Both the position numbers and the translations under genes were made by a program. A stretch of DNA of 63,205 nucleotides, the filler included. It is 8 parts of 8 records of this genome, joined end to end, with 100 filler letters (N's around TTAATTAATTAA, not from the genome) between each part and the next. Parts side by side here need not be neighbours in the genome. Positions count along the whole stretch, not along the records: positions 32,197 to 39,629 come from SRR31147125_24370; 7 more parts are not named here. The stretch is one strand, 5' to 3'. Under the pieces are notes generated by a model. That model saw only the letters and a program-made list of their open reading frames with translations. It was not told the origin of the DNA and did no database searches. Shown here piece after piece: positions 1 to 56,516 of this stretch; position 1 is the stretch's first letter; each line of letters begins with the position of its first letter.

Positions 1-3000
1 GAGAGACAACTTCTCACTTGCCAAAGGGTTGGACTTCCCCTGCCCGAGGGAGGGTGGACTCTTGCCGATCTTCACAACAAGCTTACGTGGGCAGCTGCCG
101 TGGCACGTCCATGGGGTGCCCAGGCTGTGGTGACCAAGCAAGGTGCTGCCATCGAGACACGAACGGGGGAGCCATACGGTGCACAACCGAACTACCTTAC
201 GACCACGGTCGTTCCACCGACTCAATTCGATACGAGTGGGGAGGAACAGACAACGTACAAGGTTTCAGAGTGCGATATGGTTGTGTTCGTCACCCAGCCC
301 GGACAACCCGAGGATCTTGACATCACAAAGGTCGAGATTGTGAACACACTGAAAATTGGGGACTGGCTTTATGCTGCTCTCGATGACACGCCCGTAGCCC
401 AAGAGGCCATTGGGTGTCAGTACGACACCAAACTCCTACCGGCTACCTGGATGCTCGTGCCCTATGATGATCAGATCAAGGAAGATATCAAACAATTCCC
501 CGTTCATGCATTCGGAACGGAGGGCCTTGTTCTGGAGGGTGGCGTGTCGCTGGCGCCTGCCACCGGGGTTGTGAATGGTGAGGACGTCCTGGAAACAATT
601 GATCTGGAAGGTCGGTTCCCCTTCTTCCTGTATTCCACCAACCGATGCAAGCGTCGTGTGCTTGTTCGACGAGCGGTCAATCCGGGTGCGGATGGAATGC
701 CTCTCAAGATTGCTCAGCTGGCTATCAGTAAGGCTATCCCTATACCGGATGTTGTTCCGGCAGGAGAAGAGGTTAAGTATCAAATCGAACTTCTCAACTA
801 CGGCCCGAGTGATGCTGCCTCGGTTGTCTTGACGAGCACAACTCTTCCCGGGTCGGCGGCAACCTTTGTGAGTGCAATGTTTGAGACAATGATCGCGGGG
901 GCCCGAGCAAGTGCCGGAGACTGTTCCTTTGATGGGGGGAAGGTGGTGTGTGCCATTGGTGCTCTGGGCAAGGAACAGAAGGCAACAGTTGTGGTGCGCT
1001 TCCGGTTTGCTGCCGGGGCTCAGGGAGGGGCGACCCCGAAGTTTGCTGTTCACGTAGAGAGCGAACTCCCCGATCCCAATATGAAAGACAACGATGCCGA
1101 GATTGTTGTGGGGGTGAGTACCCAGGCCGATCTGGCTGTTACCCTCGCCAGCCTGGCAGGATCCCAGATTACAGCTGGAAACACAATTCAACTCGAGGCG
1201 ACTGTCACGAACCACGGACCATCGGATGCGGGGAATGTACTCTTGTTGCCACTGGATGGTGAGGACACACCCTACAAGGTCACCTCTGTCGCCGAGCTCG
1301 AGTGTACGCCTCTTGGTGCAGACGGGAAACATTTTCAGAGTTGTCATGTGGGCACACTACGGGCGGGCGAGTCCAGGAGTTATTGGGTGGCCTACGAAAC
1401 CGGGTTGCACTCATATGAAGTCTCGCAGCCTGTCGTTTACGAGGTCCATGCAACAAGTGACTCGCACGACAATGCGTTGGAAAACAATGCCGACCAGGTG
1501 GAACTGCAAATCTTGGAACCTGAGTGGCCTGTTGATCTGCGCACTCATTTCGATGCCTCGCCGCTTACCACTGCCGTTCCGGGACAAACCAAGACCTTTA
1601 CCGTTCATGTTACCAACGCGGCCGCACATGCAGCCACGGAAGTGGGTGTTGGGTTGACCTATGCATGCGACGCCCTGGCACTTGGAGTGGGAAAGCTTCC
1701 GACGGGATGGTCCTGTGTTATTCACGAGGATCGCTGCATGGCGTCATGTTCCCTCAAACGTCTGGAAGCCAATGCCCACGCCATATTGCCCTTCTCCGCG
1801 TTTATCAAGCCTGGACAACGAGACAATGTCACATTCCAGGCCGTGTCCTTTGCACGTGAAGAAGAAGAGGCCGCTGGGGATAACACGGCAGCCATGGTGT
1901 GGGAAATGCATCCCAGTGTGGATGTGACGGTCCATGTCGTGGATCACCCCGATCCAGCACGAGCGGGAATGCCCCTTCGTTACGAGGTTCACATGTCCAA
2001 CCAGGGCCCCTCGACCGCTACCGACCTTGCACTCCACCTGAACATTCCGGCTTCGATGACGTACAACACCTCGTACTCGAATGCCCTGATGACTTCGTGT
2101 AAGGAGAGTGGGGGAGCCGTTGTGTGCACGATGCCGCTTCTCGAACCCGGCAAAGATCAGAGTGTGATGGTCGAAGTGCTCATTGACCGTGAGGCTCAGG
2201 GTACCTTGTACGCATCCGGACTGATTAGCAGCAAGGAGCCGGATGCCCACGGGGATGACAACGAGTTTACCGTTGACACTCTTCTGCCGGAGGCCAATCT
2301 TCAACTCACCCTGAACCATCCCGAGACTCAAGACCATGCGATTCCTGGAGAACGGTTTTCCTTCCACGCCGTGGTGGTGAACAATGGGCCCCATGCCGCC
2401 AGTGCCGTCCGACTTGTGGGACAACTTCCGTCAGATGTCTCCTATATCACGTCTACATTCGATTCCTCAACCGTAACCAACGGAGCTTGTTCTGCGGACA
2501 AGGACGGTGTGGTCACGTGTGAGATTGGTCGTCTGGCAGCAGGCGCATCGGCAACCGTGGTCATTGCAACTCAGGTGTCTGTGGACACACGAAAGCCCCT
2601 TGAGTTCTCGGCTGTTGTTTCCACTCCCGAGAAGGATGTCGACGGAACAGACAATGAACAAGTCATCCGCATTCCGCTGGAGATTCTTGCAGACATGGGC
2701 GTGACTCTTGTCACGAGTGCCCTGGAGGGAAGCATTATTCAGGACAATCCCATTACCTACACGGCGGTCGCTACCAACTATGGCCCTGGCATGTCTACGA
2801 GGAACACATTGACGTTTAGTATTCCCCCCAACCATGCCATCGAGAGTGCATCAACGCTGAGTCCCGCAGACGGCTCGTGCGCCATTGACGACAACACTCT
2901 GATTGTGACGTGTGACCTGCGAGACCTCGCACCTGGGGAATCTGTAACCGTGGAGGTGAATGCACTGGTGGAGACAACTGCACTCGTGGGAGGTACAGAT

Positions 3001-9028: not shown

Positions 9029-9128
9029 NNNNNNNNNNNNNNNNNNNNNNNNNNNNNNNNNNNNNNNNNNNNTTAATTAATTAANNNNNNNNNNNNNNNN
9101 NNNNNNNNNNNNNNNNNNNNNNNNNNNN
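9029..9128. other. Artificial contig linker (N-run + TTAATTAATTAA + N-run); same linker at 19089-19188, 25102-25201, 32097-32196, 39630-39729, 45963-46062, 56150-56249
   Basis: Identical 100-nt spacer with stops in all six frames; composition and gene content change at each junction. Confidence 0.98.
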
Positions 9129-19088: not shown

Positions 19089-19188
19089 NNNNNNNNNNNN
19101 NNNNNNNNNNNNNNNNNNNNNNNNNNNNNNNNTTAATTAATTAANNNNNNNNNNNNNNNNNNNNNNNNNNNNNNNNNNNNNNNNNNNN

Positions 19189-25101: not shown

Positions 25102-25201
25102 NNNNNNNNNNNNNNNNNNNNNNNNNNNNNNNNNNNNNNNNNNNNTTAATTAATTAANNNNNNNNNNNNNNNNNNNNNNNNNNNNNNNNNNNNNNNNNNN
25201 N

Positions 25202-32096: not shown

Positions 32097-32267
32097 NNNN
32101 NNNNNNNNNNNNNNNNNNNNNNNNNNNNNNNNNNNNNNNNTTAATTAATTAANNNNNNNNNNNNNNNNNNNNNNNNNNNNNNNNNNNNNNNNNNNNAAAA
32201 GTAAATAAATTAATTAAATCCATCTGAACGATGCATCGACAGATGGCTAATGAGACGACGAAAAGTG

Positions 32268-34400
32268 TCAGAACGACACATTCATCGCCACACCAAAAGT
32301 ACGGTCAGTCATGGGATATCCCCTACTGTTGGAATATTCTTCATCCAGCAGATTATTGACGTAAAGTTTTAAGGTTCCTTTCTTGAACTGGTGCCAATTG
32401 GTAAAGAGCACCTGCTCTACAGCGATGTCGAACAGGCTGTAATCATCAACACTTACCTCCTTGACATAGAGATTGCTGGGGTCGTCGTCGATCATCTCGA
32501 TGACCTGTTGAGTCTGTTCGGATTGGTATTTGTAATCCAGAAGCAGAAGGGTGTTGTCGAACAAACGATATCGAATCCCGGCATTGAGACGATGTTTGGC
32601 TCGGTCACTCAAATCCGCGTCGGCCCACTCCTCAGGCCCACCGTTATGGGGACCTTCGTATTTCCACTCATTGAAGGCATAACTGGCGTAAAACTCCGTG
32701 GTGCTGCCCAAAAACCCTTTGATTTCAATATCTACGCCATCTTTTCGAACATCTTCGAGGGAGACCATGCGGCGTCCCCAGAGCGCCTCTTTGAAATAGT
32801 CTGTGGCAGCATTGGCCCAGATGGGGTATCTCTCGAAATCGTAATGGGAGAAATCGATGTTGAAAAAGATATTCTTCAGCAGTTTCCCGGAGAAGATGAG
32901 ATCGTATCCCATTCCTTCGGCCGGATCCATCTCTACGCCGGACCCCCAGGTGCAAACTTCGCAAAAACTTCGAGGACTCCAAATCTTGCTGGCACCAAGT
33001 GACAAAGACATCCCTTTAAACCGGGGGGACATCTGCTCCATCTGCCAGGTGAGAAGGGACTTGGGTACCAGTTGATTGTAATCCCGCTTCACCTCTTTTT
33101 CAGGACGGGACGGATCTTTGTATGCCCCTTCGGGATAGGTGGACGAGGGACTCCACCAGTTGTTCCACCAGATGCTGGTGTTCTCATAGCGAAGGCCTGC
33201 CGTCCATGTTAGAAATTCCATGATATCCCATTCATCCTGAACGAACGCTGCCGTGGTATCCACCACTTCCTGAGTATACTTGCTGTAAAGGTTGGCGGTG
33301 TCGAGACCGGTAGTGACGGTGTGGGAATCTAAGAGTTCGATTTCATGCTTGAACATCCCGCCGTAGGAGACGTAGTTGGTGGTGTACCGGCTGTAATCGT
33401 ACCCTTCCCTGAAATACTCCTGATCCTCGTCCGTATAATAAGCCTCAAGTGAAAATTTTCCCATGGACGACGGCTGCTGCAAATCGAACCGAATGGTGTG
33501 TCCACCGTAATCGCGTTTTGAGTGCTCTTCCGGATTTTGCCATCTGGCCGACACATCTCCGGTTTCGACAATGGGGTAATCGCCGTCGTAATCGCTCCGG
33601 GCCGGATCGTTGGCAGCGGGAATCTCCCTGGAGATGTCGCTGTAGCTTCCCATAAGACGAATATAGCCGCCGGAAGGGAGTTTTCCCGAAATCCGACCGG
33701 TCAACGTATCGATATCCGCGCTGTTGTTTCGAAGGTAGCCATCGGTATGGTATCGCTCATAGGAAAATCCCATATTGATATTCTTCACCCCGCCGCTGGC
33801 CTCCACCATTTGACTGTTCGTATTGTATGAGCGGTAACTCGCTGAAACGCTCCCGTCCAAAGTGGGCTCTTCAAAGAATTTCGGAGTTTTGGTTTTGAAG
33901 TTGACCACCCCCCCGAAACTCTTGCCGTCGTAAAGCGAGGAATGGGGTCCGGCGATAATCTCGATACTCTCAACAATGGAGTAAGGGATAATGCCGAAAT
34001 CAACGTAATGATCTCCCCAGTATCCACCCGTTTTTTGAATGACGAGCCCATCCACGGACGTCAGAAACTGTCGGGTACTGAATCCTCTCATCTGAATCAC
34101 GTCATCGGCCGGAACCAAGTCACTCTGGGCCCGAAAATCAATGATGGCACGATCCTTGAGGATATCCAGAATACTCGTGGTGTGAGATGCCATGTTGTAA
34201 TCTTCCATGAACACCTCGGTCTTGAGGGGGCTGAGTTCGACGCGCGTGCCGGTCACATGTATCTCGTCCAGTCGGAGGGCCGTATCCGATTGTGTTTCTG
34301 ATCCGTCCTCCGACGCTGTTTCATCACACAGAGCACTACCTACGAAAATCCATCCTGTCAGCATGAAAAACACCATCATGCCAAGCCACTTCTTTTTCAT
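32268..34400 (-). CDS. TonB-dependent outer-membrane receptor
   Basis: Signal peptide, TonB box LDEIHVTG, plug IEIIAGPHSSLY...GGVVN, C-terminal NLLDEEY...VSF. Confidence 0.93.
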   Translation of the reverse strand: MKKKWLGMMVFFMLTGWIFVGSALCDETASEDGSETQSDTALRLDEIHVTGTRVELSPLKTEVFMEDYNMASHTTSILDILKDRAIIDFRAQSDLVPADDVIQMRGFSTRQFLTSVDGLVIQKTGGYWGDHYVDFGIIPYSIVESIEIIAGPHSSLYDGKSFGGVVNFKTKTPKFFEEPTLDGSVSASYRSYNTNSQMVEASGGVKNINMGFSYERYHTDGYLRNNSADIDTLTGRISGKLPSGGYIRLMGSYSDISREIPAANDPARSDYDGDYPIVETGDVSARWQNPEEHSKRDYGGHTIRFDLQQPSSMGKFSLEAYYTDEDQEYFREGYDYSRYTTNYVSYGGMFKHEIELLDSHTVTTGLDTANLYSKYTQEVVDTTAAFVQDEWDIMEFLTWTAGLRYENTSIWWNNWWSPSSTYPEGAYKDPSRPEKEVKRDYNQLVPKSLLTWQMEQMSPRFKGMSLSLGASKIWSPRSFCEVCTWGSGVEMDPAEGMGYDLIFSGKLLKNIFFNIDFSHYDFERYPIWANAATDYFKEALWGRRMVSLEDVRKDGVDIEIKGFLGSTTEFYASYAFNEWKYEGPHNGGPEEWADADLSDRAKHRLNAGIRYRLFDNTLLLLDYKYQSEQTQQVIEMIDDDPSNLYVKEVSVDDYSLFDIAVEQVLFTNWHQFKKGTLKLYVNNLLDEEYSNSRGYPMTDRTFGVAMNVSF

Positions 34401-34542
34401 CTTCCTCTCCTTGAATTTTTCATTCCTTTTCTCTCTATTGTTCTATTCACCATATCCTAGTAACGATCAAAGACCGTCGATCATCCCAAATGTTTCCTTT
34501 CCTTCGATTTCAGCATCCCCTTGCGTTTATCATGATGATTAC

Positions 34543-34602
34543 AAAAAAAAAGCCACGAAAAACACCCAGAGTCATTGCTCTGTTGGATGCCTTCGTGGCT
34601 TT
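34543..34602 (-). terminator. Terminator-like hairpin in the 5' leader of the TonB receptor gene (possible attenuator)
   Basis: Minus strand AAAGCCACGAAGGCATCC-aa-CAGAG-caatga-CTCTG-GGTGTTTTTCGTGGC followed by T9. Confidence 0.7.
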
Positions 34603-35163
34603 TAATAAATTGTTTTTGGTCCATGAAAACAATTTACTGTTTTCATGGGTTGGAGATAGCCGCTATGCAGCCTTCATCCAAAAATTGATGTTCAATCAAT
34701 GCAACCGTTATTTTTGATGAAAATCCATCCCTATGACAAATTTTCGATTTTTTACATCATCTTCTTGATGATAGAATTCATCTCTCATAATCCAATCGTA
34801 TTCCCCTTGTCAATTCTTTTCTAACAACAAATTGCCGTCTCTTCTTGTCAGCATATGGAGAACGCCACACCGCCATGTTGCATTTTTAAAACAATCGTAA
34901 ACAATCCAGGCTGGTGACAATCTTCAAAACTCATGGATTCATATCTCTATACACGTCCCTAAGATTTTAAAGACGTCAATATGTAAGACCTTATTACCGC
35001 AACCACAAAAAAGTTATTTAAAAAATTTATTGACATGTTTTAAACTCATATAGTAATCCAAAGATCAAAATATCAATACTTAAAACATACTTATGTATTT
35101 TTTAAACATACAACCACAAATTAAAAGAATCCAATAAACTGTATTCTCGGTTGAAAAGACTCA

Positions 35164-35598
35164 AAAAAAGGAAGTCGCACGCCCCAAACAAACTTTTCGG
35201 CATCATTCGGAGACTACGGCACGTCAACCTATTCGTTAAGCCACGGGGGCCGTTCCGGCAATTTCAATTACTGGGTGGCGGGAGGGTATCAAACCTCCGA
35301 CGGATTCAGATTATCCGGTGATTTCGACCCGAACGATCCCAATGTCGGTATCGGCACCTCCTACAACGAAGACGGCGGAAAAAGGGATTTAAGTTACTAC
35401 GACAAGAAAAATTTCGACATGAAATTGGGTTTTGATCCCGGAACAGGGACAAATCTATATCTATCCTTCGATTATGTGAACAACGACAGAGGCATGCCGA
35501 CCTTCTTCAATCGCTACTGGGAGTACCGCAAATGGGAGCAGTGGCAACGTAGGGATCATTCCCCTCCAAATGATGAAATTCGGTATCGAAAAAAATAG
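35164..35598 (+). pseudogene. Internal fragment of a second TonB-dependent receptor
   Basis: KKGSRTPQTNFSASFGDYGTSTYSLSHGGRSGNFNYWVAGGYQTSDGFRLS looks like the first barrel strands; no signal peptide, plug or C-terminus; in-frame TGA just upstream. Confidence 0.72.
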
Positions 35599-35618
35599 GA
35601 TAACAATAAGGAACGACG

Positions 35619-36277
35619 ATGACAAAAAAAAATTGGACACAGACCCAAAAAGCGACCTTTGACAGAAAAAACGCCGTCAAAATGGATGAAATCGCCAAAA
35701 CCGTATTTGCCCCCATCTACCCGGTAATCGCAAAAAACGCTCTGGAGATCACCGGGATCAGCAAAGGGATCTGCCTGGATATCGGCAGCGGCCCGGGCAT
35801 GCTCTCCCTCGCCATGGCCGAACAAGCACCGGAGTTGTCGCTGGTGGCATTTGATTTCTCAGAAGATTCAAGACAAATCGCGGAAAGAAACATCCATGAA
35901 GCCGGTCTGGACAATCGAATTAAAACGGCATCGGGAGATGTGCATGAAATGCCTTTTGAAGACGGCATTGCCGATGTGATCGTCAGTCGCGGCTCCCTGT
36001 TTTTCTGGAAGGATCTTGAAAGTGCTTTCAGGGAAATCTATCGAATTCTTGCTCCGAAAGGGGCGACCTATATCGGCGGCGGATTTGGAAGTCTCGTACT
36101 GAAAGACCATGTGGTATCGGAGATGCTGAAAATCGACCCGGATTGGAACTGCTACGCCAAAAAAAGAGTGATGAAGAACACGTGAATCGTTTTGAGAAGC
36201 TGTTTGCCGACATGGGGTGTACGCAGTATCGAATCATCGATGACGAGACCGGTTTCTGGATCGTTCTCAGGAAATAG
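35619..36277 (+). CDS. Class I SAM-dependent methyltransferase; frameshift in the A-run near 36160
   Basis: CLDIGSGPG, GDVHEMPFED, VSRGSLFFW, EIYRILAPKG; continues SDEEHVNRFEK...GFWIVLRK* in the next frame. Confidence 0.88.
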
Positions 36278-36287
36278 ATCAAAAGAT

Positions 36288-36328
36288 AATCTTCTACCAT
36301 ACGCGCATAGCGGGTATGGTAGAAGATT
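36288..36328. terminator. 15-bp inverted repeat between convergent genes
   Basis: AATCTTCTACCATAC-11 nt-GTATGGTAGAAGATT. Confidence 0.65.
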
Positions 36329-36388
36329 GCCTGATGATCGGCCCGATCCCTTTACGGTGTTGAAGGTATTCAAACAAACATATTGGAA

Positions 36389-39300
36389 TTACCGATACAG
36401 AGGGCACCTTTTACCCATGCACCCGCTATTCTCATCTTTCTGGGTGCAAACCAGTGAGTCTTTGGCTCTCAGGGCAATAGGCAGATATTGTTTTGACAAA
36501 ACAGCCGCCCTTTTCAACCCCAGCCAGGAATCACGCTGACAACACCTTGCTGCCGCAAGCCGGCCGATATCTGTTGCCACGGCCTGATTGATCTGCTGTA
36601 TGGTTTTTCGTTTATCCGGAGTCAATGGAGTGGCCTCCAGAATCAGGGAAAACGCAATTCCCACACCCTGGGCCACACCGCAACAGCCCATGAACGCGCA
36701 TGCACCGCCGGCAACGGTTTTTCCCCGGTTTATTCCGGACTCGATGACGGACACGGAAATATTTCCCCCGAGATTGCGATAGGTCGATAATATAATGGCC
36801 GGTATCAGGGAGTGGTGCTCGGGGCCGTTTAACGGCATGGCCGGATGCTGACGGATTTTCTTTAACAATGACATCATGTCCGTCTCATGGGTTGTCAGGC
36901 AGACATGCCTGATGATCTCCAGAGCGTTTTCACTATGGCAGGCATCACAAACAAAATGGCCGTTTTCACACACACTGTTGGCCATAAAAGGGTTATTGCA
37001 ATATGCACAACTCTTTTCCCGATCTTCCGACAAATAGATCAAGGGTGCACCGCACACCATGCATTCGCTTGCCTGCCGGGGGAGAACGACGGAGGCTTGG
37101 AGGGCAGTCGGATTCTCTTTCCCGACTTTTTTGGGCGATGATTGGGGTTCCGGATTAATAAAACAGTTACAGCCATTTTCCGTTTCGATATTGGTCATAT
37201 TGCCGGTGTCATCCAGCATAAAAATTTGATCTCCCAACATCTGTGCATGTTTTCGGGGAATCGACCGCGTTATCCCCGCAGACAACACTTGATCATCCCA
37301 AATGGTGATTTTGGATAATGGCCCCCGGTAGATGACATCCACAAAGTCACAGGCCGCCTCGGGTTTGACTGCGGAATATGTGAGAGAAAAAACATGTGGC
37401 CGGACACCTCGCGGTAGGGAAACCGTTTGATCAGCCGAATCCCTGTGAACCCGGTACCATAGAGTAACGCCGTCAAGTGCCGTTGGGTCATGGCACCGGC
37501 AATGCATTCCCCTCTCAATGTTTCATCGTTCCTGATTTCCGGATCCGGTTCGGTTTCACAAACCACATCCGAAATCACCAGGCGACCGCCGGGGCGCAGT
37601 ACGCGAAGGATCTCGGAATAGGCATGCCTTTTATTGACGGAAAGGTTCATCACACAATTTGAAATCACCACATCCGCACAGTTGTCCTCCATGGGAAGGG
37701 TCTCGAGGTATCCCTTGGCAAACCGGATATTGTTATAGCCAAGGTTCCCACTGACACCCACCAGCCCTTTTTTTGCCAGTTCAAGCATGGGATCGAGCAT
37801 GTCCACACCGGTAACACGGCCGGTGGGGCCGGTCAGACGGGATGCAATGAAACATTCGACACCGGTCCCGCACCCCAGATCCACCACATGTTCTCCGGGA
37901 ACGATATGGGCATCCGACACCGGGCTGCCGCATCCATATCCCCTGAAACGGCTTTTTGAAGGAATGTGAGATATCAAGGATTCCTCATAGGAAACCGGGT
38001 TCAATATCTCATCTTTTTTATCCCCGGCCGCTTGGGCATAAAATGACTTTACAACATTCAAACTGTTGTTTTCCTGGGCAATCGCCAACAGGCAATTGGA
38101 GTGCACCAGGGCGACCTTTCCATGGGCGCCGCAACTATCGAGGATTTCACCCATCCGCAATTTTACCTGTCCATGCCCGTTAAGGGATGCTGACGACGAC
38201 TCCCGGGCCAGAATCCATAACGCCATTTTTTCATAAAGTGCCTGATAGGGGTCATCCCCCATGAATGTCTTCTGATGAATATAGCTTTGATCAATATCCC
38301 CGCCGCCGATTAAAAACCGAAAAGGCGAAGTTGTGGACGCGGCCGAACATTTTCTTATTTTCGTCAGCACGTCACTTTGTCGCCATGCGGTTTCAACTCC
38401 GGAGGAAATCTGTGTTGCCAATTCCGGGATTCCGACCAAAGCGGCAGACGGATAGAGATTTCCGTCAGGCCCGATGGCAACCGATTCCCAGGCCGCTGTA
38501 CATCCGTCATGTATGGTTCCCCTGGGGGCAAACACCTGGGTCTTCAGGGCTTCGATATTGTCAATGGGGATGCCGCAGGATTCAGATGCCGTCATAGCGG
38601 AAACTAAGTTGGAAAAAATCGTATCGATTGATGCGCAGGCAATTTTTTCACCGCGACCACGAACAAAATGCCACAAAAAATGAATATTGCCGGCCCCTTT
38701 TTTTGCACCGAATGTCACCAACTCCGTCATGTCATGGACATTGCCCCGGTTGACACACATGGAAAGCGTATAGGGAATATGCTGCGCCGCTAACCACTCG
38801 ATATTTTCGACCAGTTTATCAAATGCCCCCGGGCCTCTGATCAGGTCATGACGCTTGCCGATGCCGTCGACACTGATCTGCAAATGGAGTCGTTTAAACT
38901 CATACTCTTTTTTGCCCAGAACATCCGGAAGATTCATTCCGTTTGTCAGAACCGCTACATGGGCATCAGGATAAGCAAGCAATCCATGGATGATCTCATC
39001 GATTTCCGGATGAACCAACGGTTCGCCCCCGGTCAAGACAAATACCCGGCTCCCTAAACCGTAAGCCTGGTCGGCAATGTTCAATACTTGATTTGCGCTC
39101 AACTCATCCGCTTCTTTTGGAGATGAAGAAAAAGACAGTGCGAGCAGGCCAGATTACATCGATTGGTGATGTGCAGCCACAGCTCGCTGAGGCGTTCCAG
39201 CTTCAGATAGTCATGTCGCCCGCTATATGCTGTGGGTAAGGTTGAAGGCAGATGGTCGATGAATTCCAACACATCCTGATCATTGCCATTCAATCCGTTT

Positions 39301-39437
39301 GACAGTTTTTGCAATATATCATCCCCTTTTGGGTTTGGGACAAACCAATCCGGGCCATTCGGATGAATATAAACCGGGGTCTCTTCAAACAGTATCCGCT
39401 GCCAGTTTTGTTTTTGGAAATGGGGTTGCGTATCCAT
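36389..39437 (-). CDS. Radical SAM / ArsM-like methyltransferase / Cys-rich DUF5714-like fusion (~1,015 aa); homopolymer frameshifts near 39130 and 37390
   Basis: CNLACSHC, LTGGEP, ISVDG; GYGCGSP, DLGCGTG, SNCVMNL, GECIAGA; CMVC..CAYC..CENGHFVCDACH, GPEHH, GGACAFMGCCG, RCC. Adding one T to each of two T-runs joins the three ORFs. Confidence 0.85.
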
Positions 39438-39729
39438 ATTGTGCTCTTTTCCTCCTTAGATTTCTCCAGAGCGTTGCTATTGTAAAAGCCTACCAAACCC
39501 AATTCTAACCCGATTCATGAATGTTTGAACAGGATTTCCAGGATAAATAAGTACCGTCCCTTAAAAAACCGCATAAAGATTCTGCTGCGTCAGCAATTAG
39601 GCAGCGCATAAAAGCGAAGGTCTCTTTTTNNNNNNNNNNNNNNNNNNNNNNNNNNNNNNNNNNNNNNNNNNNNTTAATTAATTAANNNNNNNNNNNNNNN
39701 NNNNNNNNNNNNNNNNNNNNNNNNNNNNN

Positions 39730-40089
39730 TCCCACTACCTGCCCGCTAAAGGAATGACACAACTATTACAGACCATTGGCAGAGTGAAAAAACAGATCAA
39801 CCCGAACCTTAAAATTGAGGGCGCTTTGCTAACTATGGTGGATAACCGTACTAACTTTGCCAAAGATATTTCTTTTGTTTTGCGCCGGGATTATGGGGAC
39901 AAATTACGTGTCTTTAAAACAGAGATACCACTTGCAATAAAAGCGGCAGAGACAAGTGCGGAAGGGAAAAGCATATATGCTTATGATCCAAAAGGAAAAG
40001 CCGCAGAAGCATATATGGCGCTTACAGAGGAGGTGTTAAGAATTGGCCAAAAACAACATCAGAAACATAAAACTGACATCAGTCGATGA
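39730..40089 (+). CDS. parA: ParA/Soj family ATPase, 3' part
   Basis: NPNLKIEGALLTMVD.RTN, IPLAIKAAE..AEGKSIYAYDP. Confidence 0.9.
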   Translation, partial: SHYLPAKGMTQLLQTIGRVKKQINPNLKIEGALLTMVDNRTNFAKDISFVLRRDYGDKLRVFKTEIPLAIKAAETSAEGKSIYAYDPKGKAAEAYMALTEEVLRIGQKQHQKHKTDISR

Positions 40090-40981
40090 TCTGTTTAGCA
40101 GTAATGGAGGAACCGGCGGCGGAGATAATAATGACCCCTCCGAACAAATAGTTGAAATCCCTATTTCTGAAATAACCGACTTCCCCGACCATCCATTTAG
40201 AGTTGAGCAGAATGAAGCGATGCGAGATATGGTAGAAAGTATCAAGAATCAAGGTTTAGTTCATCCTGTTTTGGTCAGGCCGAAAGAAAATGGTGGTTAT
40301 GAAATGATTGCGGGACATCGTCGGAAAATGGCAAGTGAGTTGGCTGGATTGGAAAGTATTCGTTGCATTGTTCGTGAGCTGTCTGATGATGAAGCCATAA
40401 TAGCAATGGTTGATTCAAACATTCAGCATCGGGAAGATATACGCCCAAGTGAAAAAGCAAAAGCATTAAAAATGAGAATGGATGCTATGCAAAGACAAGG
40501 ACAGCGAAACGATTTAACTTCTCGCCAAGTTGGCGAGAAGTTAACAGCAGATGAAGTTGGGAAAATATCTGGAGACAGCGCAAGACAAGTTCAGCGTTAC
40601 ATACGATTAAACGAGCTTATTCCTTCCCTTCAAAATATGGTTGATGATAAGAAAATGGCATTTAATCCAGCCGTTGAATTATCATTTTTAGATACGGAAT
40701 CACAGAAAAACGTAATAGATGTCATGCAACAAGAAGAATGTACTCCCTCTCTTTCTCAAGCACAGAGAATAAAGAAATACTATCAGGAAGGTAAACTCGA
40801 TAGAAACGTGACTGAGGCAATAATGAGCGAAGAAAAGCCACAACAAAGCCGTGTTGTTTTACCAGCCGACAAGGTACAAAAGTATTTCCCAAAAGGTACA
40901 ACCCCAAAAGAAATGGAAGATATCATTTTTAAACTGCTGGAACAGTATCGCCGAAGGAATCTTGATCGGGGAGCCAGATAA
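40043..40981 (+). CDS. parB: ParB/RepB/Spo0J family protein of the type found on Firmicutes mobile elements
   Basis: SVDDLF, FPDHPF, YEMIAGHRR, MVDSNIQ, RQGQRNDL, QVQRYIRL. Confidence 0.92.
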   Translation: MAKNNIRNIKLTSVDDLFSSNGGTGGGDNNDPSEQIVEIPISEITDFPDHPFRVEQNEAMRDMVESIKNQGLVHPVLVRPKENGGYEMIAGHRRKMASELAGLESIRCIVRELSDDEAIIAMVDSNIQHREDIRPSEKAKALKMRMDAMQRQGQRNDLTSRQVGEKLTADEVGKISGDSARQVQRYIRLNELIPSLQNMVDDKKMAFNPAVELSFLDTESQKNVIDVMQQEECTPSLSQAQRIKKYYQEGKLDRNVTEAIMSEEKPQQSRVVLPADKVQKYFPKGTTPKEMEDIIFKLLEQYRRRNLDRGAR

Positions 40982-41010
40982 TTAAACACTAATTAGACTT
41001 AGGAGGAAAT

Positions 41011-41790
41011 TTGAAAATGAAACTGTTCAAAAACAAAATCGTAATCGGCGTAATATGCATTATTGCAGGTCTGCTGCTAAGCTTTGTTGCTTTACCAGCA
41101 TTACAAGGAAGCAATCAGGAAACTTATTCAAATGTTGTTCGTATGAAGGAAACGGTGCAGGGAGGGACACAGCTGAATTCGGATATGGTTGAGGTGGTTA
41201 AGATACCGGATGATCTCATAAAAGGGAGCATTAACGATATCGCTTCGGTTGCCGGCAAGTACGCCGCTACGGAGCTATACGTCGGAGATTATTTGACCAG
41301 TGAGAAGTTATCGTCTTCACCATCAAATCAAAACGCTTTTTCGGCTGGTACGATCAAAGGTAAAACCGTTGTATCAATTACATTACCTTCTTTTGCATCC
41401 GGCGTTTCCGGAAGGCTACAACCAGGCGATGTCGTGACGGTTATGGCGTTACCCAAAGGTGCAATTGATCAATCATTAGGTGTTGAGCCAGATACATCCG
41501 GTTCCGAAATGGATTCGGGTGTTATCATCTATCCTGAATTAGAGTACGTCGAAGTATGTATGGCAACAGCAAGTGATGGTTCAGACTCCGATGTGAAGAG
41601 TAGCCTTAACAATGAAGAAAATAATAATCTGCCAATAACAGTTTCTTTTTTCGTTGATGAATCCCAAGCATTACGGCTTGTAGAGCTAGAAGAGCAAGGT
41701 AGAATTCATTTGGCTTTTGTCGCTCGCGGTAAAGATACCACAAAGTACATACCGGACTCACAGCGCATATTCAATACGGAGGTGGACTGA
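41011..41790 (+). CDS. cpaB: Flp pilus assembly protein CpaB/RcpC (SAF domain)
   Basis: N-terminal TM, SAF-like VAGKYAATELYVGD, GVSGRLQPGDVV. Confidence 0.8.
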   Translation: MKMKLFKNKIVIGVICIIAGLLLSFVALPALQGSNQETYSNVVRMKETVQGGTQLNSDMVEVVKIPDDLIKGSINDIASVAGKYAATELYVGDYLTSEKLSSSPSNQNAFSAGTIKGKTVVSITLPSFASGVSGRLQPGDVVTVMALPKGAIDQSLGVEPDTSGSEMDSGVIIYPELEYVEVCMATASDGSDSDVKSSLNNEENNNLPITVSFFVDESQALRLVELEEQGRIHLAFVARGKDTTKYIPDSQRIFNTEVD

Positions 41791-41791
41791 T

Positions 41792-42523
41792 ATGCTTATA
41801 TCAATTTGGGGACGTGATGGTATTGGGAAAAGCAAGCTCGCCGATGCTTTAGGTTTCCTTTTTTCCAAGAAAGACACTACTATTGTAATTGATACAGACC
41901 TCACACAACCGACATTACCTGTACGGCTTAATGGTAAGAGGTTTGATTCAGATCATTCGTTAGGCAAAGCTGTATCGGGTATAGGGACATCTTGTGCAAC
42001 TCGATATCTGCATCAGCACCCGAAAAAAAAGCAACTATTCTATGCTGGATTGACAGATAATGATGAATATCTTTCATATGAAATCGGATTAGAAGCGGAT
42101 AACAACGCTCAGGATTTTATCGAAGCATGCAAAGAGGTTGCGAAAGTAGTTATTCTCGATCTATCCGGCCAGAGAACAGACCCCTTTGTCCCCTGCGCTC
42201 TAAGCCATTCAGACAAAATAATAATTCCCATAACACCGAATGTACAAGGAATATGTTGGTATAATGCGGTTAAACCTTTGCTCCAAACCATGAACACAAA
42301 AAAATGCATCCTCCCAGTTACGGCAATGACTGAACGGAACCATGATTTGTCCATAGTTGAAAAAGCGGCGAATTTGCATTTTGCCGTAGAACTCCCCTTT
42401 GTTAAAGAATTCAGACAGGATAGCATAACACCCCCGTCTGACTGTGCATCACTTCCAGCTCTACGGTACGCAAAACAGGTGAAAAAACTTAATTCGCTTT
42501 TGAAAGGAGATGATAAGTCTTGA
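41792..42523 (+). CDS. MinD/ParA-like (CpaE/TadZ-like) ATPase
   Basis: ISIWGRDGIGKS deviant P-loop, VILD; between cpaB and cpaF. Confidence 0.7.
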   Translation: MLISIWGRDGIGKSKLADALGFLFSKKDTTIVIDTDLTQPTLPVRLNGKRFDSDHSLGKAVSGIGTSCATRYLHQHPKKKQLFYAGLTDNDEYLSYEIGLEADNNAQDFIEACKEVAKVVILDLSGQRTDPFVPCALSHSDKIIIPITPNVQGICWYNAVKPLLQTMNTKKCILPVTAMTERNHDLSIVEKAANLHFAVELPFVKEFRQDSITPPSDCASLPALRYAKQVKKLNSLLKGDDKS

Positions 42524-43848
42524 AAACGTTTCGTGAAATTGCCTATGACAAAAACACCGAAACACCTCAGAAACAAAGCCAATATGAATCAATACTTGAT
42601 GAAACCCGAACGTATATTACACAAAACCATTCGGAAGAACTCGCGCAAAGTATTATAACGAAATCATCACTGGATACCGTCAAGGCGGTGATTAAAAAAT
42701 ACGTTGACAGCCATCATCTCCGGCTAGACGGCTTCACCATGCAACAACTGGTCGATAAGTTATATGGTGATATGGTAGGGTTTGGTTTTCTTGATAAGTA
42801 TATCTCCGATGATGAAATTGAAGAGATTAATGGAAACTCATGGCGCGATATTGAGATCGTTACAAAAACTGGTTGGAGAAAGATACCTGAACATTTTCTT
42901 TCCCCGCAGCATGGAGAGGATACGTTGCGAAAAATGGTTCGGTTAGGAGGTCTGGTGCTGGACGGTACAAATCCCATTGTTGATAGTTACATCACACAGG
43001 GGATTCGTATTTCAGCAATGATTCCTCCTGTCACAGATAAACGAAGTGGGGTTGTGTTTTCCATACGTCGTCAACGGATGGCTAGAGTTACGAAAGAACA
43101 ACTTGTTGAATGGCAAACTGCCACACCTGAGATGCTTAATTTTCTCACACTATGTATCAATCACGGTGTTTCCATCGGAATTGCGGGTAAAACAGGAAGC
43201 GGCAAAACAACGGATATTTCTTTTCTCCTCAACATGGCTGATAAGAACAAGCGTATCTATACCATTGAAGAAACACGTGAACTTGATTTATTCAACGAAG
43301 ACACAAACGGCAAAACACAGAATCGCGTCATTCATACTTGCACACGGCCATCAGAGATGAAGAATGCCGATATTGATATGAATGATCTGCTGCGAAAAGC
43401 AATGAGGTTTTCACCGGATATTATCGCTGTCGCAGAAATGCGTGGAGCTGAAGCTATGGTGGCCCAAGAAGCAGCACGTACTGGACATACAGTAGTGACG
43501 AGTCTACATGCTAATTCAGCAAGAAAAGCATATAACCGCATCTTAAGCATGTGCCAGATGTCCGGGACGAATATTTCCACGAGCATTCTCATGAGTTTCG
43601 TCAAAGAAGCATTTCCAATTATGGTATTCAAACGCCAGTTTCCCGATGGAACAAGGCGCATCATGGAGATCATTGAAGTAACAGGTGCAAAGGACGGTAT
43701 AGTCAAGACCAGCACACTCTATCGTTATGATATGCGGAATAAAAAATACGAAAAAGCTAATGGCATATCTGATTCCTTATCAGATATCCTTTGCGAGAAC
43801 GGCGCTGACCGTGCAATTGTAGATACTTACAGGGAGGTAGCAACATGA
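42520..43848 (+). CDS. cpaF: CpaF/TadA pilus assembly ATPase
   Basis: GKTGSGKTT, IEETREL, RFSPD...AEMRG, GHTVVTSLHANS. Confidence 0.92.
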   Translation: MKTFREIAYDKNTETPQKQSQYESILDETRTYITQNHSEELAQSIITKSSLDTVKAVIKKYVDSHHLRLDGFTMQQLVDKLYGDMVGFGFLDKYISDDEIEEINGNSWRDIEIVTKTGWRKIPEHFLSPQHGEDTLRKMVRLGGLVLDGTNPIVDSYITQGIRISAMIPPVTDKRSGVVFSIRRQRMARVTKEQLVEWQTATPEMLNFLTLCINHGVSIGIAGKTGSGKTTDISFLLNMADKNKRIYTIEETRELDLFNEDTNGKTQNRVIHTCTRPSEMKNADIDMNDLLRKAMRFSPDIIAVAEMRGAEAMVAQEAARTGHTVVTSLHANSARKAYNRILSMCQMSGTNISTSILMSFVKEAFPIMVFKRQFPDGTRRIMEIIEVTGAKDGIVKTSTLYRYDMRNKKYEKANGISDSLSDILCENGADRAIVDTYREVAT

Positions 43849-44771
43849 TTTTAAATACTCTATGTGCCTTGTTACTTATAACAGGGTTTTTTTTATTGCT
43901 GGGTATTCATCCATCCACACTATTTGCACCGCTCATACGTCCTTTACAGCGGCGATACGAAAAAAATCAACGCATCCTGCGTATTACAGGCAAACCAAAA
44001 GGCAGAATTGCAAATACGATAGACAGTGCCAAAGAAATGCTTGCAGCAGCAAATATGACAGAAAAAACCAACACTTATAAATGGGCTTCCGTGATATCGG
44101 CATGTATCGGGTTGCTGATTGGATTTGCATTGGATAATCTGCTTGTTGCATTGGTTCTAGCTGGAGGACTAAGCTGTTCTCCTCTTATCGTGATTCGTAT
44201 TCGCACAGGCGATTATTTAAGAAGTCTACATGAAAAACTGGAAAGCGCTATGAGCACCGTCACTAACAGCTATATTTCGTCCAGCGATTTGATTGATGCC
44301 GTTGAAAGCAGCCTGCATTTAATTCCGGCCCCGGTTGAGAGTGTCTTTAGGCAGTTCTATACACAAACCCAACTCGTTAATTCGGATATTGTGAAAGCGC
44401 TGTTGCAAATACGGGATAGGATTAATAACCGTTATTGGCATGACTGGTGTGATGTATTGATACAATGCCAGCGGGATCGGCAAATGCGCTTTGCGTTATC
44501 CGGCATTGTAAGCCGTCTTGGTGAGATGCGGCGTGCGCAAATGGAGACAGATACGACAATACGCAAACATCTGGGTGATTACATCACAACAGTACTGATT
44601 GTTTTAGGCGCTATCCCTTTAATGGGGACAATGATGCCAGATTGGTACACCATGCTGACAACCACACCCATTGGCAAGATTACGTTAGCTGTCATATTGG
44701 CTGCAATTCTTTCTACGGCAATATGGGTGGCTCGGTTATATCGCCCATTAGAAGGTGGTGATACGGAATGA
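43845..44771 (+). CDS. tadB: TadB-like membrane platform protein
   Basis: TM pattern, T2SS-F-like core, MPDWY.ML..TPIGK; coupled to cpaF. Confidence 0.75.
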   Translation: MILNTLCALLLITGFFLLLGIHPSTLFAPLIRPLQRRYEKNQRILRITGKPKGRIANTIDSAKEMLAAANMTEKTNTYKWASVISACIGLLIGFALDNLLVALVLAGGLSCSPLIVIRIRTGDYLRSLHEKLESAMSTVTNSYISSSDLIDAVESSLHLIPAPVESVFRQFYTQTQLVNSDIVKALLQIRDRINNRYWHDWCDVLIQCQRDRQMRFALSGIVSRLGEMRRAQMETDTTIRKHLGDYITTVLIVLGAIPLMGTMMPDWYTMLTTTPIGKITLAVILAAILSTAIWVARLYRPLEGGDTE

Positions 44772-45646
44772 CGCTGATAATCCTTGCGATGACCGCAATT
44801 CTATTTATTTTCGGATTGTATCATATTGCACAGGTTGCCTTTGGTTTACCTTCCGGTCATGTAATTAGTGCGATCAAAAACATTCATGGGAAACATGATA
44901 TGGCTAAGCGGATGCAAGATGTCCTGTTTCCATTAGCCAAATTAATATCGAAACTGGTTCCAATGAGTGAATATAAAGAAATAAGGTTAAAAGAAGATTT
45001 TTCAAGACTAAATATTCAACAAACGCCCCGAGATTATGTTGCAACAGTCATGGCAAAGACTTTGTTGTTAACTGTTATTGGCTTGCTGTTCATTCCGCTT
45101 GGTATTCCTTGGCTTTCCCTGCTGACAACCGCTGCTGCCGTGCTTCTATATTTTCAGAATATGCAATCTGTCCGTAAAAAAGTGGAGGGTCTAAATCAAG
45201 AAATTGAATCAGAGTTGCCAAGGATGGTTGAAACTTTGAATTATTCCTTACAAGATAACCACGATTTGCTATCCTTTTTTGAAAAATACCGAAAAGTCTC
45301 AGGACGGGCGCTTAGCTCAGAACTAGACCGACTAATCATCGGTATGAAAACAGGAAATCAGGAAATAGCTCTTCGAAGCATGGATGCGAGATTAGGTTTA
45401 CCGTCCTTTGCTGCGTTATGCGCCATACTTTGTGGTGTTCACCAAGGTGTTGATCAACGTACAAGTCTTTTAGTTCTTGAACAGGACTTACGTACAAAAG
45501 AAAGAGAAACACTAAGGCGCAAAATGGAAAAACGCCCAGGTCGAATTAAAGCAGCGTCTTTCATCCTCACGATTTTGTTAATATTCATGTTTATGGTTCC
45601 ACTGATACTATTGATCATTAAAAACTTGGAAACCGCTGGTTTCTAA
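44768..45646 (+). CDS. tadC: TadC-like membrane platform protein
   Basis: IESELPRMV, MKTGN.E.AL..M..R, C-terminal TM. Confidence 0.75.
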   Translation: MTLIILAMTAILFIFGLYHIAQVAFGLPSGHVISAIKNIHGKHDMAKRMQDVLFPLAKLISKLVPMSEYKEIRLKEDFSRLNIQQTPRDYVATVMAKTLLLTVIGLLFIPLGIPWLSLLTTAAAVLLYFQNMQSVRKKVEGLNQEIESELPRMVETLNYSLQDNHDLLSFFEKYRKVSGRALSSELDRLIIGMKTGNQEIALRSMDARLGLPSFAALCAILCGVHQGVDQRTSLLVLEQDLRTKERETLRRKMEKRPGRIKAASFILTILLIFMFMVPLILLIIKNLETAGF

Positions 45647-45949: not shown

Positions 45950-46133
45950 ATAAAGACCAATGNNNNNNNNNNNNNNNNNNNNNNNNNNNNNNNNNNNNNN
46001 NNNNNNTTAATTAATTAANNNNNNNNNNNNNNNNNNNNNNNNNNNNNNNNNNNNNNNNNNNNTCCAAGTACACGAATATACAAACTTTAATGGTATTTAC
46101 CTTTACTGTCTCGGCGATTTTTCAAGCGATTTA

Positions 46134-56149: not shown

Positions 56150-56516
56150 NNNNNNNNNNNNNNNNNNNNNNNNNNNNNNNNNNNNNNNNNNNNTTAATTA
56201 ATTAANNNNNNNNNNNNNNNNNNNNNNNNNNNNNNNNNNNNNNNNNNNNAAAGCAGCCAGGACGCCTATTCTGTCTGCTATTCAATATGAGTAGGTTAAA
56301 CAATTTCAACGAATTGGAGAACCGATTGATCAGTGATTTCATTAACCTAAGCTGAGTTTTATATTGTATTGATGTTAGTGTCTTGAAATTATAGCTTAAT
56401 ATTGGCATAATTAAGACTGCTAAGTATTCACACAATTTGTTTGAAACCTTGGTCAAGTTCATTATGGAACAGAAAAACCGAAGGGTGCAAATGAGACATT
56501 AATCGGAGGATGCATT

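Follow-up and report, generated by a model that had tools for sequence, protein, structure and literature searches.

To our knowledge, the formation of carbon-arsenic (C-As) bonds by radical S-adenosylmethionine (SAM) enzymes has been described for just two systems, ArsS and ArsL, in each case from work on aerobes or phototrophs. According to a review, ArsS adds a 5'-deoxyadenosyl radical to dimethylarsenite, DMAs(III), and the cysteines of the RCCLKC motif of ArsL bind As(III) (PMC13598754). Here, we analysed a 63,205-nucleotide stretch of joined draft contigs (the window) and describe a minus-strand gene at 36389..39437 that encodes a radical SAM half, an ArsM-like methyltransferase and a Cys-rich zinc ribbon plus DUF5714 module in a single chain. 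The gene is most likely intact and codes for approximately 1016 residues; the enzyme family to which its product belongs is conserved among anaerobes and uncharacterised. We favour, with a probability of roughly 0.6, the reading that it is one intact gene providing anaerobes with an ArsS-independent, fused route to organoarsenicals.

The fusion resembles the described systems in part. Like ArsS (TIGR04167, radical SAM plus DUF3641) with its partner ArsM, it combines radical SAM activity with an ArsM-type methyltransferase and is associated with TIGR04282/TIGR04283 genes, and the distributions of ArsS and the fusion are complementary. Unlike the fusion, ArsS and ArsM are two separate proteins, although a natural ArsM-ArsS fusion (locus L091) exists; moreover, the radical SAM half of the fusion stays far below the ArsS cut-off of 300 (16 to 59 bits) and has a CteB-like predicted fold, and the fusion carries DUF5714 where ArsS carries DUF3641. 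With ArsL and ArsM in arsinothricin synthesis, the fusion would share the radical SAM formation of a C-As bond combined with an ArsM step. However, ArsL is a non-canonical enzyme that transfers an aminocarboxypropyl group, and the likeness between its RCCLKC tail and the invariant Arg-Cys-Cys of the fusion's DUF5714 extends to three residues only.

In the window, the gene appears as a head-to-tail row of three minus-strand open reading frames (ORFs) at 39437..39099 (112 aa), 39102..37270 (610 aa) and 37507..36389 (372 aa). From one ORF to the next the frame moves by +2, which is the pattern left by a single missing base. Its features are as follows.

36389..39437, minus strand: whole gene, 1016 codons with one extra base in each of two homopolymer runs, three ORFs as it stands in the window.
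39183..39437, minus strand: N-terminal domain of ~85 residues, the counterpart of the N-terminal, peptide-recognition domain of CteB when the L003 homologue model is superposed on it.
39135..39158, minus strand: CNLACSHC, the CxxxCxxC of the radical SAM [4Fe-4S] cluster, invariant in homologue alignments.
39129..39133, no strand assigned: break 1, a plus-strand A5 (coding-strand T5) directly after CNLACSHCLF; A6 in the contig from sequencing run X1.
38071..39134, minus strand: radical SAM barrel and SPASM-like C-terminal subdomain without auxiliary-cluster cysteines, with GPDGNLYPSAA at 38440-38472.
38092..38136, minus strand: C-x2-H-x6-H-x2-C motif (SCGAHGKVALVHSNC), its C, H, H and C invariant in homologues.
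37133..38061, minus strand: ArsM-like class I SAM methyltransferase with its C-terminal subdomain, crossed by break 2.
37924-37941, 37642-37662 and 37492-37512, minus strand: methyltransferase Cys motifs GYGCGS, SNCVMNL and GECIAGA, respectively.
37373-37387 and 37319-37330, minus strand: methyltransferase tail motifs SLTYS and YRGP.
37387..37392, no strand assigned: break 2, a plus-strand A6 (coding-strand T6) between the FF and SLTY of GHMFFSLTY; A7 in the run-X1 contig.
36935..37063, minus strand: zinc-ribbon-like Cys/His segment (CMVCG, CAYCN, HFVCDACH) with weak zinc-ribbon Pfam matches (E 0.036 to 2.1).
36395..36913, minus strand: helical DUF5714 domain with GPEHH, GGACAFMGCCG, ARCCQRD and a C-terminal CxQ..C....C tail.
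36812-36826, 36677-36709 and 36530-36550, minus strand: the DUF5714 motifs GPEHH, GGACAFMGCCG and ARCCQRD.

An earlier note, made from the letters of the DNA alone, had joined the three ORFs into one radical SAM, ArsM and Cys-rich protein by two T-run corrections; all of the motifs that it named were located in the translated sequence, and the three Pfam hidden Markov models (HMMs) that it proposed to run, Radical_SAM (1.8e-12), Methyltransf_31 (1e-30) and DUF5714 (8.7e-55), all matched among the three ORFs. The two corrections were examined in a public sequencing run (X1) that contained 0.99 of the sampled words of the window and may be its source sample. This comparison was made at the level of X1 contigs, which drop rare variants, rather than raw reads. 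Over 36000-39600, the matching contig (17,068 nt, word depth 104) differed from the window by 0 substitutions and 3 inserted A's, located behind 36158, 37386 and 39128, the latter two being exactly the predicted corrections, such that the 1016-codon frame was restored. A second run, X2, contributed no contig here. This interval has 28 homopolymer runs that are 5 bases or longer, of which only 3 differed, and all three were plus-strand A runs. The three pieces were also collinear with full-length homologues, with the alignment placing the junctions at HCLF-SSSP and FF-SLTY. Of 238 columns invariant in 20 full-length homologues, the window gene retained 231; the other 7 comprised the substitutions C130S, V252I, L409I and L950A and 3 columns at the trimmed break sites. 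The two breaks are thus most likely assembly or sequencing errors in an intact gene, because the X1 contig restores both frames, the run differences show an error pattern and there is no other decay.

The architecture proved to be real and present at full length in many genomes. A protein search with the middle ORF as the query (7998 candidates scored) returned 1291 proteins at E ≤ 0.001. Among the best 120 of these, 116 were 943 to 1057 aa long and contained PF04055, PF13847 and PF18978 together, and the other 4 were 707 to 852 aa, two of them marked partial; the condition that the earlier note had named as fatal to its proposal, that homologues exist solely as separate genes, therefore does not hold. 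A genome survey at one genome per species yielded 427 stretches encoding relatives, and the locus counts given below refer to the best 80 of these 427. The best 80 loci are full-length matches and come from Desulfobacterota, Chlorobium/Prosthecochloris, Planctomycetota, Victivallales, Anaerolineales, Nitrospiraceae and Myxococcales metagenome-assembled genomes as well as from isolates, and the isolates carrying the fusion include Malonomonas rubra DSM 5091 and Maridesulfovibrio salexigens. An uninterrupted ORF of >800 aa with one motif was found in 72/80 loci, and the 8 that failed this filter are not all broken, since a later domain search recovered three of them as ORFs no shorter than 880 aa. 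Overall, the fusion family is not rare and is widely conserved in anaerobes. Its members are named in databases only as "DUF5714 domain-containing protein" or "methyltransferase", and no paper that we found describes the architecture, subscription journals and supplements being outside the search: "DUF5714" gave no paper, queries for radical SAM/ArsM fusions gave only selenoprotein reviews, and the ArsS and arsenosugar literature searched held no description of the fusion. In the literature searched, as the earlier note had supposed, no characterised enzyme of this architecture was found.

The methyltransferase domain carries the cysteines expected of an arsenic enzyme. Its best solved structural match was CmArsM (4fr0, E 2.9e-35, ~190 residues), and three query cysteines aligned with chain residues 72, 174 and 224 (positions counted on the alignment), which we take to be the As(III)-binding cysteines of CmArsM. 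These three positions were invariant in 20/20 homologues, in agreement with the earlier assignment of the three motifs as As(III)-handling sites. The alignment starts at chain residue 57, such that the fourth, N-terminal ArsM cysteine, presumably Cys44 of CmArsM, falls outside it. The ArsM C-terminal subdomain is also present, as the NF040538 profile was matched to its end. Thus, the fusion shares with CmArsM/AS3MT (PDB 4fr0, 4kw7, 5evj, 8xt7) the three aligned cysteines and the C-terminal subdomain, but differs in that its methyltransferase is embedded between two modules, forms its own clade and falls below the cut-off of the arsenite methyltransferase model NF008823. The latter was the best NCBIfam match of the methyltransferase piece at 208.9 bits (cut-off 263), and three full-length homologues likewise scored 204.1, 216.3 and 208.4 bits, all <263. 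A quick maximum-likelihood tree was built from 61 ArsM-like domains and one outgroup. In this tree, which sampled every third fusion of loci L001-L080 and included no characterised ArsM, the 32 fusion domains formed one clade (Shimodaira-Hasegawa-like approximate likelihood ratio test, SH-aLRT, 100) apart from four stand-alone groups, on an unresolved backbone. The domain is therefore ArsM-like in its cysteines, as first proposed.

A link to organoarsenicals comes from the distribution of the gene. When conserved neighbours were sought, as the earlier note had suggested, the loci examined had no universal neighbour of the fusion; the commonest neighbour cluster, an aldolase class II with GAPDH (12/72 loci), looks like lineage synteny. 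A recurring neighbour was a protein in which TIGR04282 and TIGR04283 are fused, both families being named for arsenosugar biosynthesis by NCBI; the one such neighbour checked against NCBIfam scored 212.8 bits for TIGR04282 (cut-off 134) and 253.9 for TIGR04283 (cut-off 182). An HMM built from 7 such neighbours gave strong matches (>140 bits) to these glycosyltransferase relatives in the fetched flanks of 17/80 fusion loci from several phyla, and no such match in the window. We also counted, by hand from profile-search tables, the relevant genes in 151 Desulfobacterota genomes, using Fisher tests that ignore relatedness. In 10/151 genomes, DUF5714 was part of an open frame no shorter than 903 aa. 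TIGR04283 exceeded its cut-off in 64/151, comprising 10/10 fusion genomes and 54/141 others (Fisher p 1.2e-4), while ArsS exceeded its cut-off in 50/151 genomes, but in only 1/10 of those with the fusion. Among glycosyltransferase-positive genomes, ArsS was present in 1/10 fusion genomes vs. 44/54 others (Fisher p 2.8e-5), such that 45 of the 64 had ArsS, 9 had the fusion only and 10 had neither. The fusion was the sole ArsM-like match in 8/10 Desulfobacterota fusion genomes, and the cyanobacterial-type AsSugarArsM (NF038099) was above its cut-off in 0/151. Further fusion genomes showed ArsS in 0/4 and the glycosyltransferase in 4/4 (G001-G004), or ArsS in 2/4 and the glycosyltransferase in 3/4 (G156-G159). 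Overall, 17 of 18 fusion genomes had TIGR04283 and 3 of 18 had ArsS, indicating that displacement of ArsS by the fusion is a strong tendency and not a rule. The glycosyltransferase association and the complementarity with ArsS thus lend comparative support to the organoarsenical role suggested in the earlier note, the chemistry of which we infer.

Other natural joinings of the same two activities were encountered in this survey. L091:1012-3087 (plus strand) encodes a 692-aa protein in which an ArsM-like domain is followed by radical SAM and DUF3641, i.e. an ArsM-ArsS fusion in the opposite domain order. L082:1405-3249 (minus strand), which ends in a Cys-rich tail, and L085:1450-3666 (minus strand) are radical SAM and ArsM-like fusions without DUF5714, in genomes with the glycosyltransferase and without ArsS; such fusions occurred in 2/10 of the Desulfobacterota genomes that were glycosyltransferase-positive with neither ArsS nor the DUF5714-containing fusion.

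It is improbable that the protein is solely a detoxifying arsenite methyltransferase, with its radical SAM and DUF5714 parts giving electrons, thiol re-reduction or maturation and no second C-As bond. The conserved ArsM cysteines would suit such a role, an ArsM+CMD protein (L111) is present in this sample, and NCBIfam matches include ArsM fused to redox-type domains, namely the ArsM/AhpD and ArsM/DUF2284 selenoproteins (NF041537, NF041536), which like the fusion join ArsM to Cys/Sec-rich domains in a recurrent theme. However, neither CxxxCxxC nor the rest of the radical SAM core varies between phyla, the distribution of the gene follows that of the glycosyltransferases and complements that of ArsS, and no ars resistance genes recur beside it.

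The third module is defined by DUF5714 (PF18978), which was matched over its whole profile (1-173) by residues 199-371 of the third ORF at 185.4 bits (gathering threshold 26.2) and contains an Arg-Cys-Cys that is invariant in homologues. Pfam searches of this C-terminal module at E ≤ 10 gave weak zinc-ribbon/RING matches beside DUF5714 and no other redox family. Its structure was predicted with confidence (predicted local distance difference test, pLDDT, 91.2). Foldseek of the DUF5714 model against PDB returned 0 matches at E ≤ 0.001, an ESM Atlas search gave no usable match, and the top Z score from VIA-align, run on 48,161 chains, was 5.3 (CyuA 9fsl_A, root-mean-square deviation (rmsd) 4.9, 142 aligned), followed by 5.0 and 4.8. 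By the scale of VIA-align, these Z scores are within the range of a common arrangement; they point to no convincing solved relative and do not imply a novel fold. The nearest named relative is the selenoprotein MbdU (NF045648), with the zinc ribbon and DUF5714 of the fusion matching the first ~270 positions of its model (profile positions 13-266 of 468). However, the score was 127.5 bits against a cut-off of 600, and the window gene contains no in-frame TGA and no selenocysteine, of which MbdU has two. A table in PMC13188914 lists a "CU" motif for MbdU, which may correspond to the Arg-Cys-Cys. True MbdU selenoproteins above the cut-off were found in 0/151 Desulfobacterota genomes. Genome scans also showed that stand-alone DUF5714 proteins exist, and genome G035 has one with a zinc ribbon (247 aa) at a distance of ~2.7 kb from its fusion on contig C2 (176580-177296, 179976-180698).

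The chances are slim that the substrate of this architecture is, in place of arsenic, a different soft element (Se, Te, Sb) or a thiol compound such as a sulfur metabolite. Such a substrate would fit with the separate methyltransferase clade and its scores below the NF008823 cut-off, with the "metal-binding" designation of MbdU, and with the fact that the "arsenosugar" name of the pathway is NCBI's own label. Against it stand the invariance of all three As(III)-ligand cysteine positions and a distribution complementary to that of ArsS, an arsenic enzyme.

The earlier note had set the fusion beside the ArsS-ArsM and ArsL-ArsM pairs, but its radical SAM half appears to be related to neither ArsS nor ArsL. 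Radical_SAM (PF04055) exceeded its cut-off of 29.5 with 48.2 bits, although the piece that bears the motif was not part of the match. On the ArsS model, the first ORF scored 16.4 bits and full-length fusions in 5 genomes 45.7 to 58.7 bits, and no DUF3641 (Pfam) was found on any of the three ORFs. A structure model of residues 1-455 of homologue L003 (pLDDT 90.3), which stands in for the broken sequence of the window, best matched the sactipeptide synthase CteB (PDB 5wgg; Z 28.7, rmsd 3.6, 388 aligned, model 6..414 vs. CteB 2..450), followed by anSME (PDB 4k36; Z 26.8), TigE, SuiB and SkfB; sequence searches of this half also matched SkfB and PqqE. The whole half is therefore predicted to be of SPASM lineage and CteB-like. 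Unlike CteB and anSME, however, the fusion lacks the auxiliary Fe-S cysteine motif, with only two invariant cysteines past the barrel (C433 and C446 of the homologue alignment), and its substrate is not obviously a peptide. The SPASM cysteines are kept in L085, the DUF5714-free relative (32% identical over 736 residues), which reads YPC where the fusion reads YPS and also contains CxxCxxxxxCxxxC.

These structural matches, which include the N-terminal domain, might be taken to indicate a maturase of ribosomally synthesized and post-translationally modified peptides (RiPPs) or of proteins, in which the CteB-like half recognises a peptide by its N-terminal domain and the methyltransferase tailors it. 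We regard this as very unlikely, since the auxiliary-cluster cysteines are absent, no precursor- or transporter-like neighbour recurs (ORFs of at least 90 aa), and the ArsM-type cysteines would be hard to account for. Least credible of all is that both frameshifts are real and the gene is a true pseudogene of the source organism or is expressed through slippage: the frameshifts do stand in the window and a contig comparison would miss rare variants, but the depth-104 contig has longer runs at both breaks as well as at another site, in the neighbouring gene, the few differing runs are all plus-strand A's, the invariant columns show no further decay, and homologues have uninterrupted frames.

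Several observations weigh against an ArsS-independent route to organoarsenicals. The methyltransferase passed no NCBIfam cut-off. When 133 immediate neighbours were sorted by family, the 25 most frequent families included none from ars operons, 63/80 loci had no nearby glycosyltransferase, and the 7.4-kb contig of the window gene carries no pathway gene. The fusion coexists with ArsS in G085, G156 and G159, G157 lacks the glycosyltransferase, and the Fisher tests do not allow for relatedness. By sequence, the radical SAM half is no ArsS homologue beyond the core, and its modelled fold is that of peptide-modifying SPASM enzymes; with this fold, and with ArsS present beside the fusion in three genomes, there is room for a different product.

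On balance, we retain the organoarsenical reading, in which the fusion would supply what ArsS and ArsM supply to the glycosyltransferase-linked pathway, because of the gene distribution described above. If it stands in for ArsS and ArsM, the simplest mechanism would therefore be methylation followed by radical adenosylation or a related C-As coupling. From residues, folds and distribution, we infer each of the following chemical steps. As(III) would be held on thiolates, and the ArsM-like domain would methylate it with SAM through the three conserved ArsM cysteines. The radical SAM half would then cleave a second SAM and, as its distribution suggests, form a further C-As bond, in the simplest form by adding a 5'-deoxyadenosyl radical to dimethylarsenite as ArsS does. 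More speculatively, by analogy with the RCCLKC tail of ArsL, the zinc ribbon and DUF5714 with its Arg-Cys-Cys could hand over or re-reduce the arsenic/thiol centre. The product would enter the pathway of the TIGR04282/TIGR04283 glycosyltransferase-like proteins. A bolder version, which we advance tentatively and at less than even odds, is that the family constitutes a second, ArsS-independent anaerobic route to C-As bonds, in which a radical SAM enzyme of SPASM lineage was recruited and fused to its own ArsM and a Cys-rich arsenic-handling domain without a solved structural match. The organoarsenical that sulfate- and sulfur-cycling anaerobes would make in this way would be an undescribed one, sugar- or lipid-linked or bearing a non-adenosyl carbon group.

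The remainder of the window is a composite. Linkers of N44 + TTAATTAATTAA + N44, of the kind used to join draft contigs, occur seven times (9029-9128, 19089-19188, 25102-25201, 32097-32196, 39630-39729, 45963-46062 and 56150-56249), which makes the window an artificial chain of at least 8 contigs. Two features border the gene.

39630..39729, no strand: artificial contig joint, N44 + TTAATTAATTAA + N44; the contig that carries the gene spans 32197-39629.
35619..36185, plus strand: convergent class I methyltransferase gene, truncated by a one-base deficit in an A7 at 36159-36165.

The extra A of the X1 contig behind 36158 extends this neighbouring methyltransferase gene (35619-36185), and this third one-base deficit suggests a general tendency of the assembly to homopolymer errors. 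The neighbour was considered as a conserved partner of the fusion and rejected, as it recurred in 1/80 loci. The gene's contig also carries a TonB-dependent receptor gene of 710 aa (32268-34400, minus strand), near which a 107-aa TonB-dependent-receptor-like fragment (35275-35598, plus strand) may be another assembly-broken gene. GC content falls from ~55% (left) to ~35% (right) along the window, and the pieces may not share one replicon or organism. The GC drop at ~39.4 kb and the ParA/ParB genes beyond it belong to a contig other than the one with the gene. This next contig, at 40043-45646, contains a C-terminal ParA fragment truncated at the contig edge, a ParB (Pfam-checked) and apparent Flp/Tad-type pilus assembly genes. 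Another contig (25485-31442) encodes a secretin, an AAA ATPase, a TPR protein and a T2SSE/MshE ATPase, forming an MSHA-like type IV pilus or secretion cluster.

The window illustrates how homopolymer errors can disguise a 1016-residue gene as three ORFs. The family contains cultured strains, which make the organoarsenical reading directly testable. Surveys of anoxic soils and sediments based on arsM may count these fusion genes as simple detoxifying arsM and so misread arsenic cycling. If the proposed route is correct, the family would represent a third radical SAM solution for making C-As bonds, in fused form and in anaerobes.

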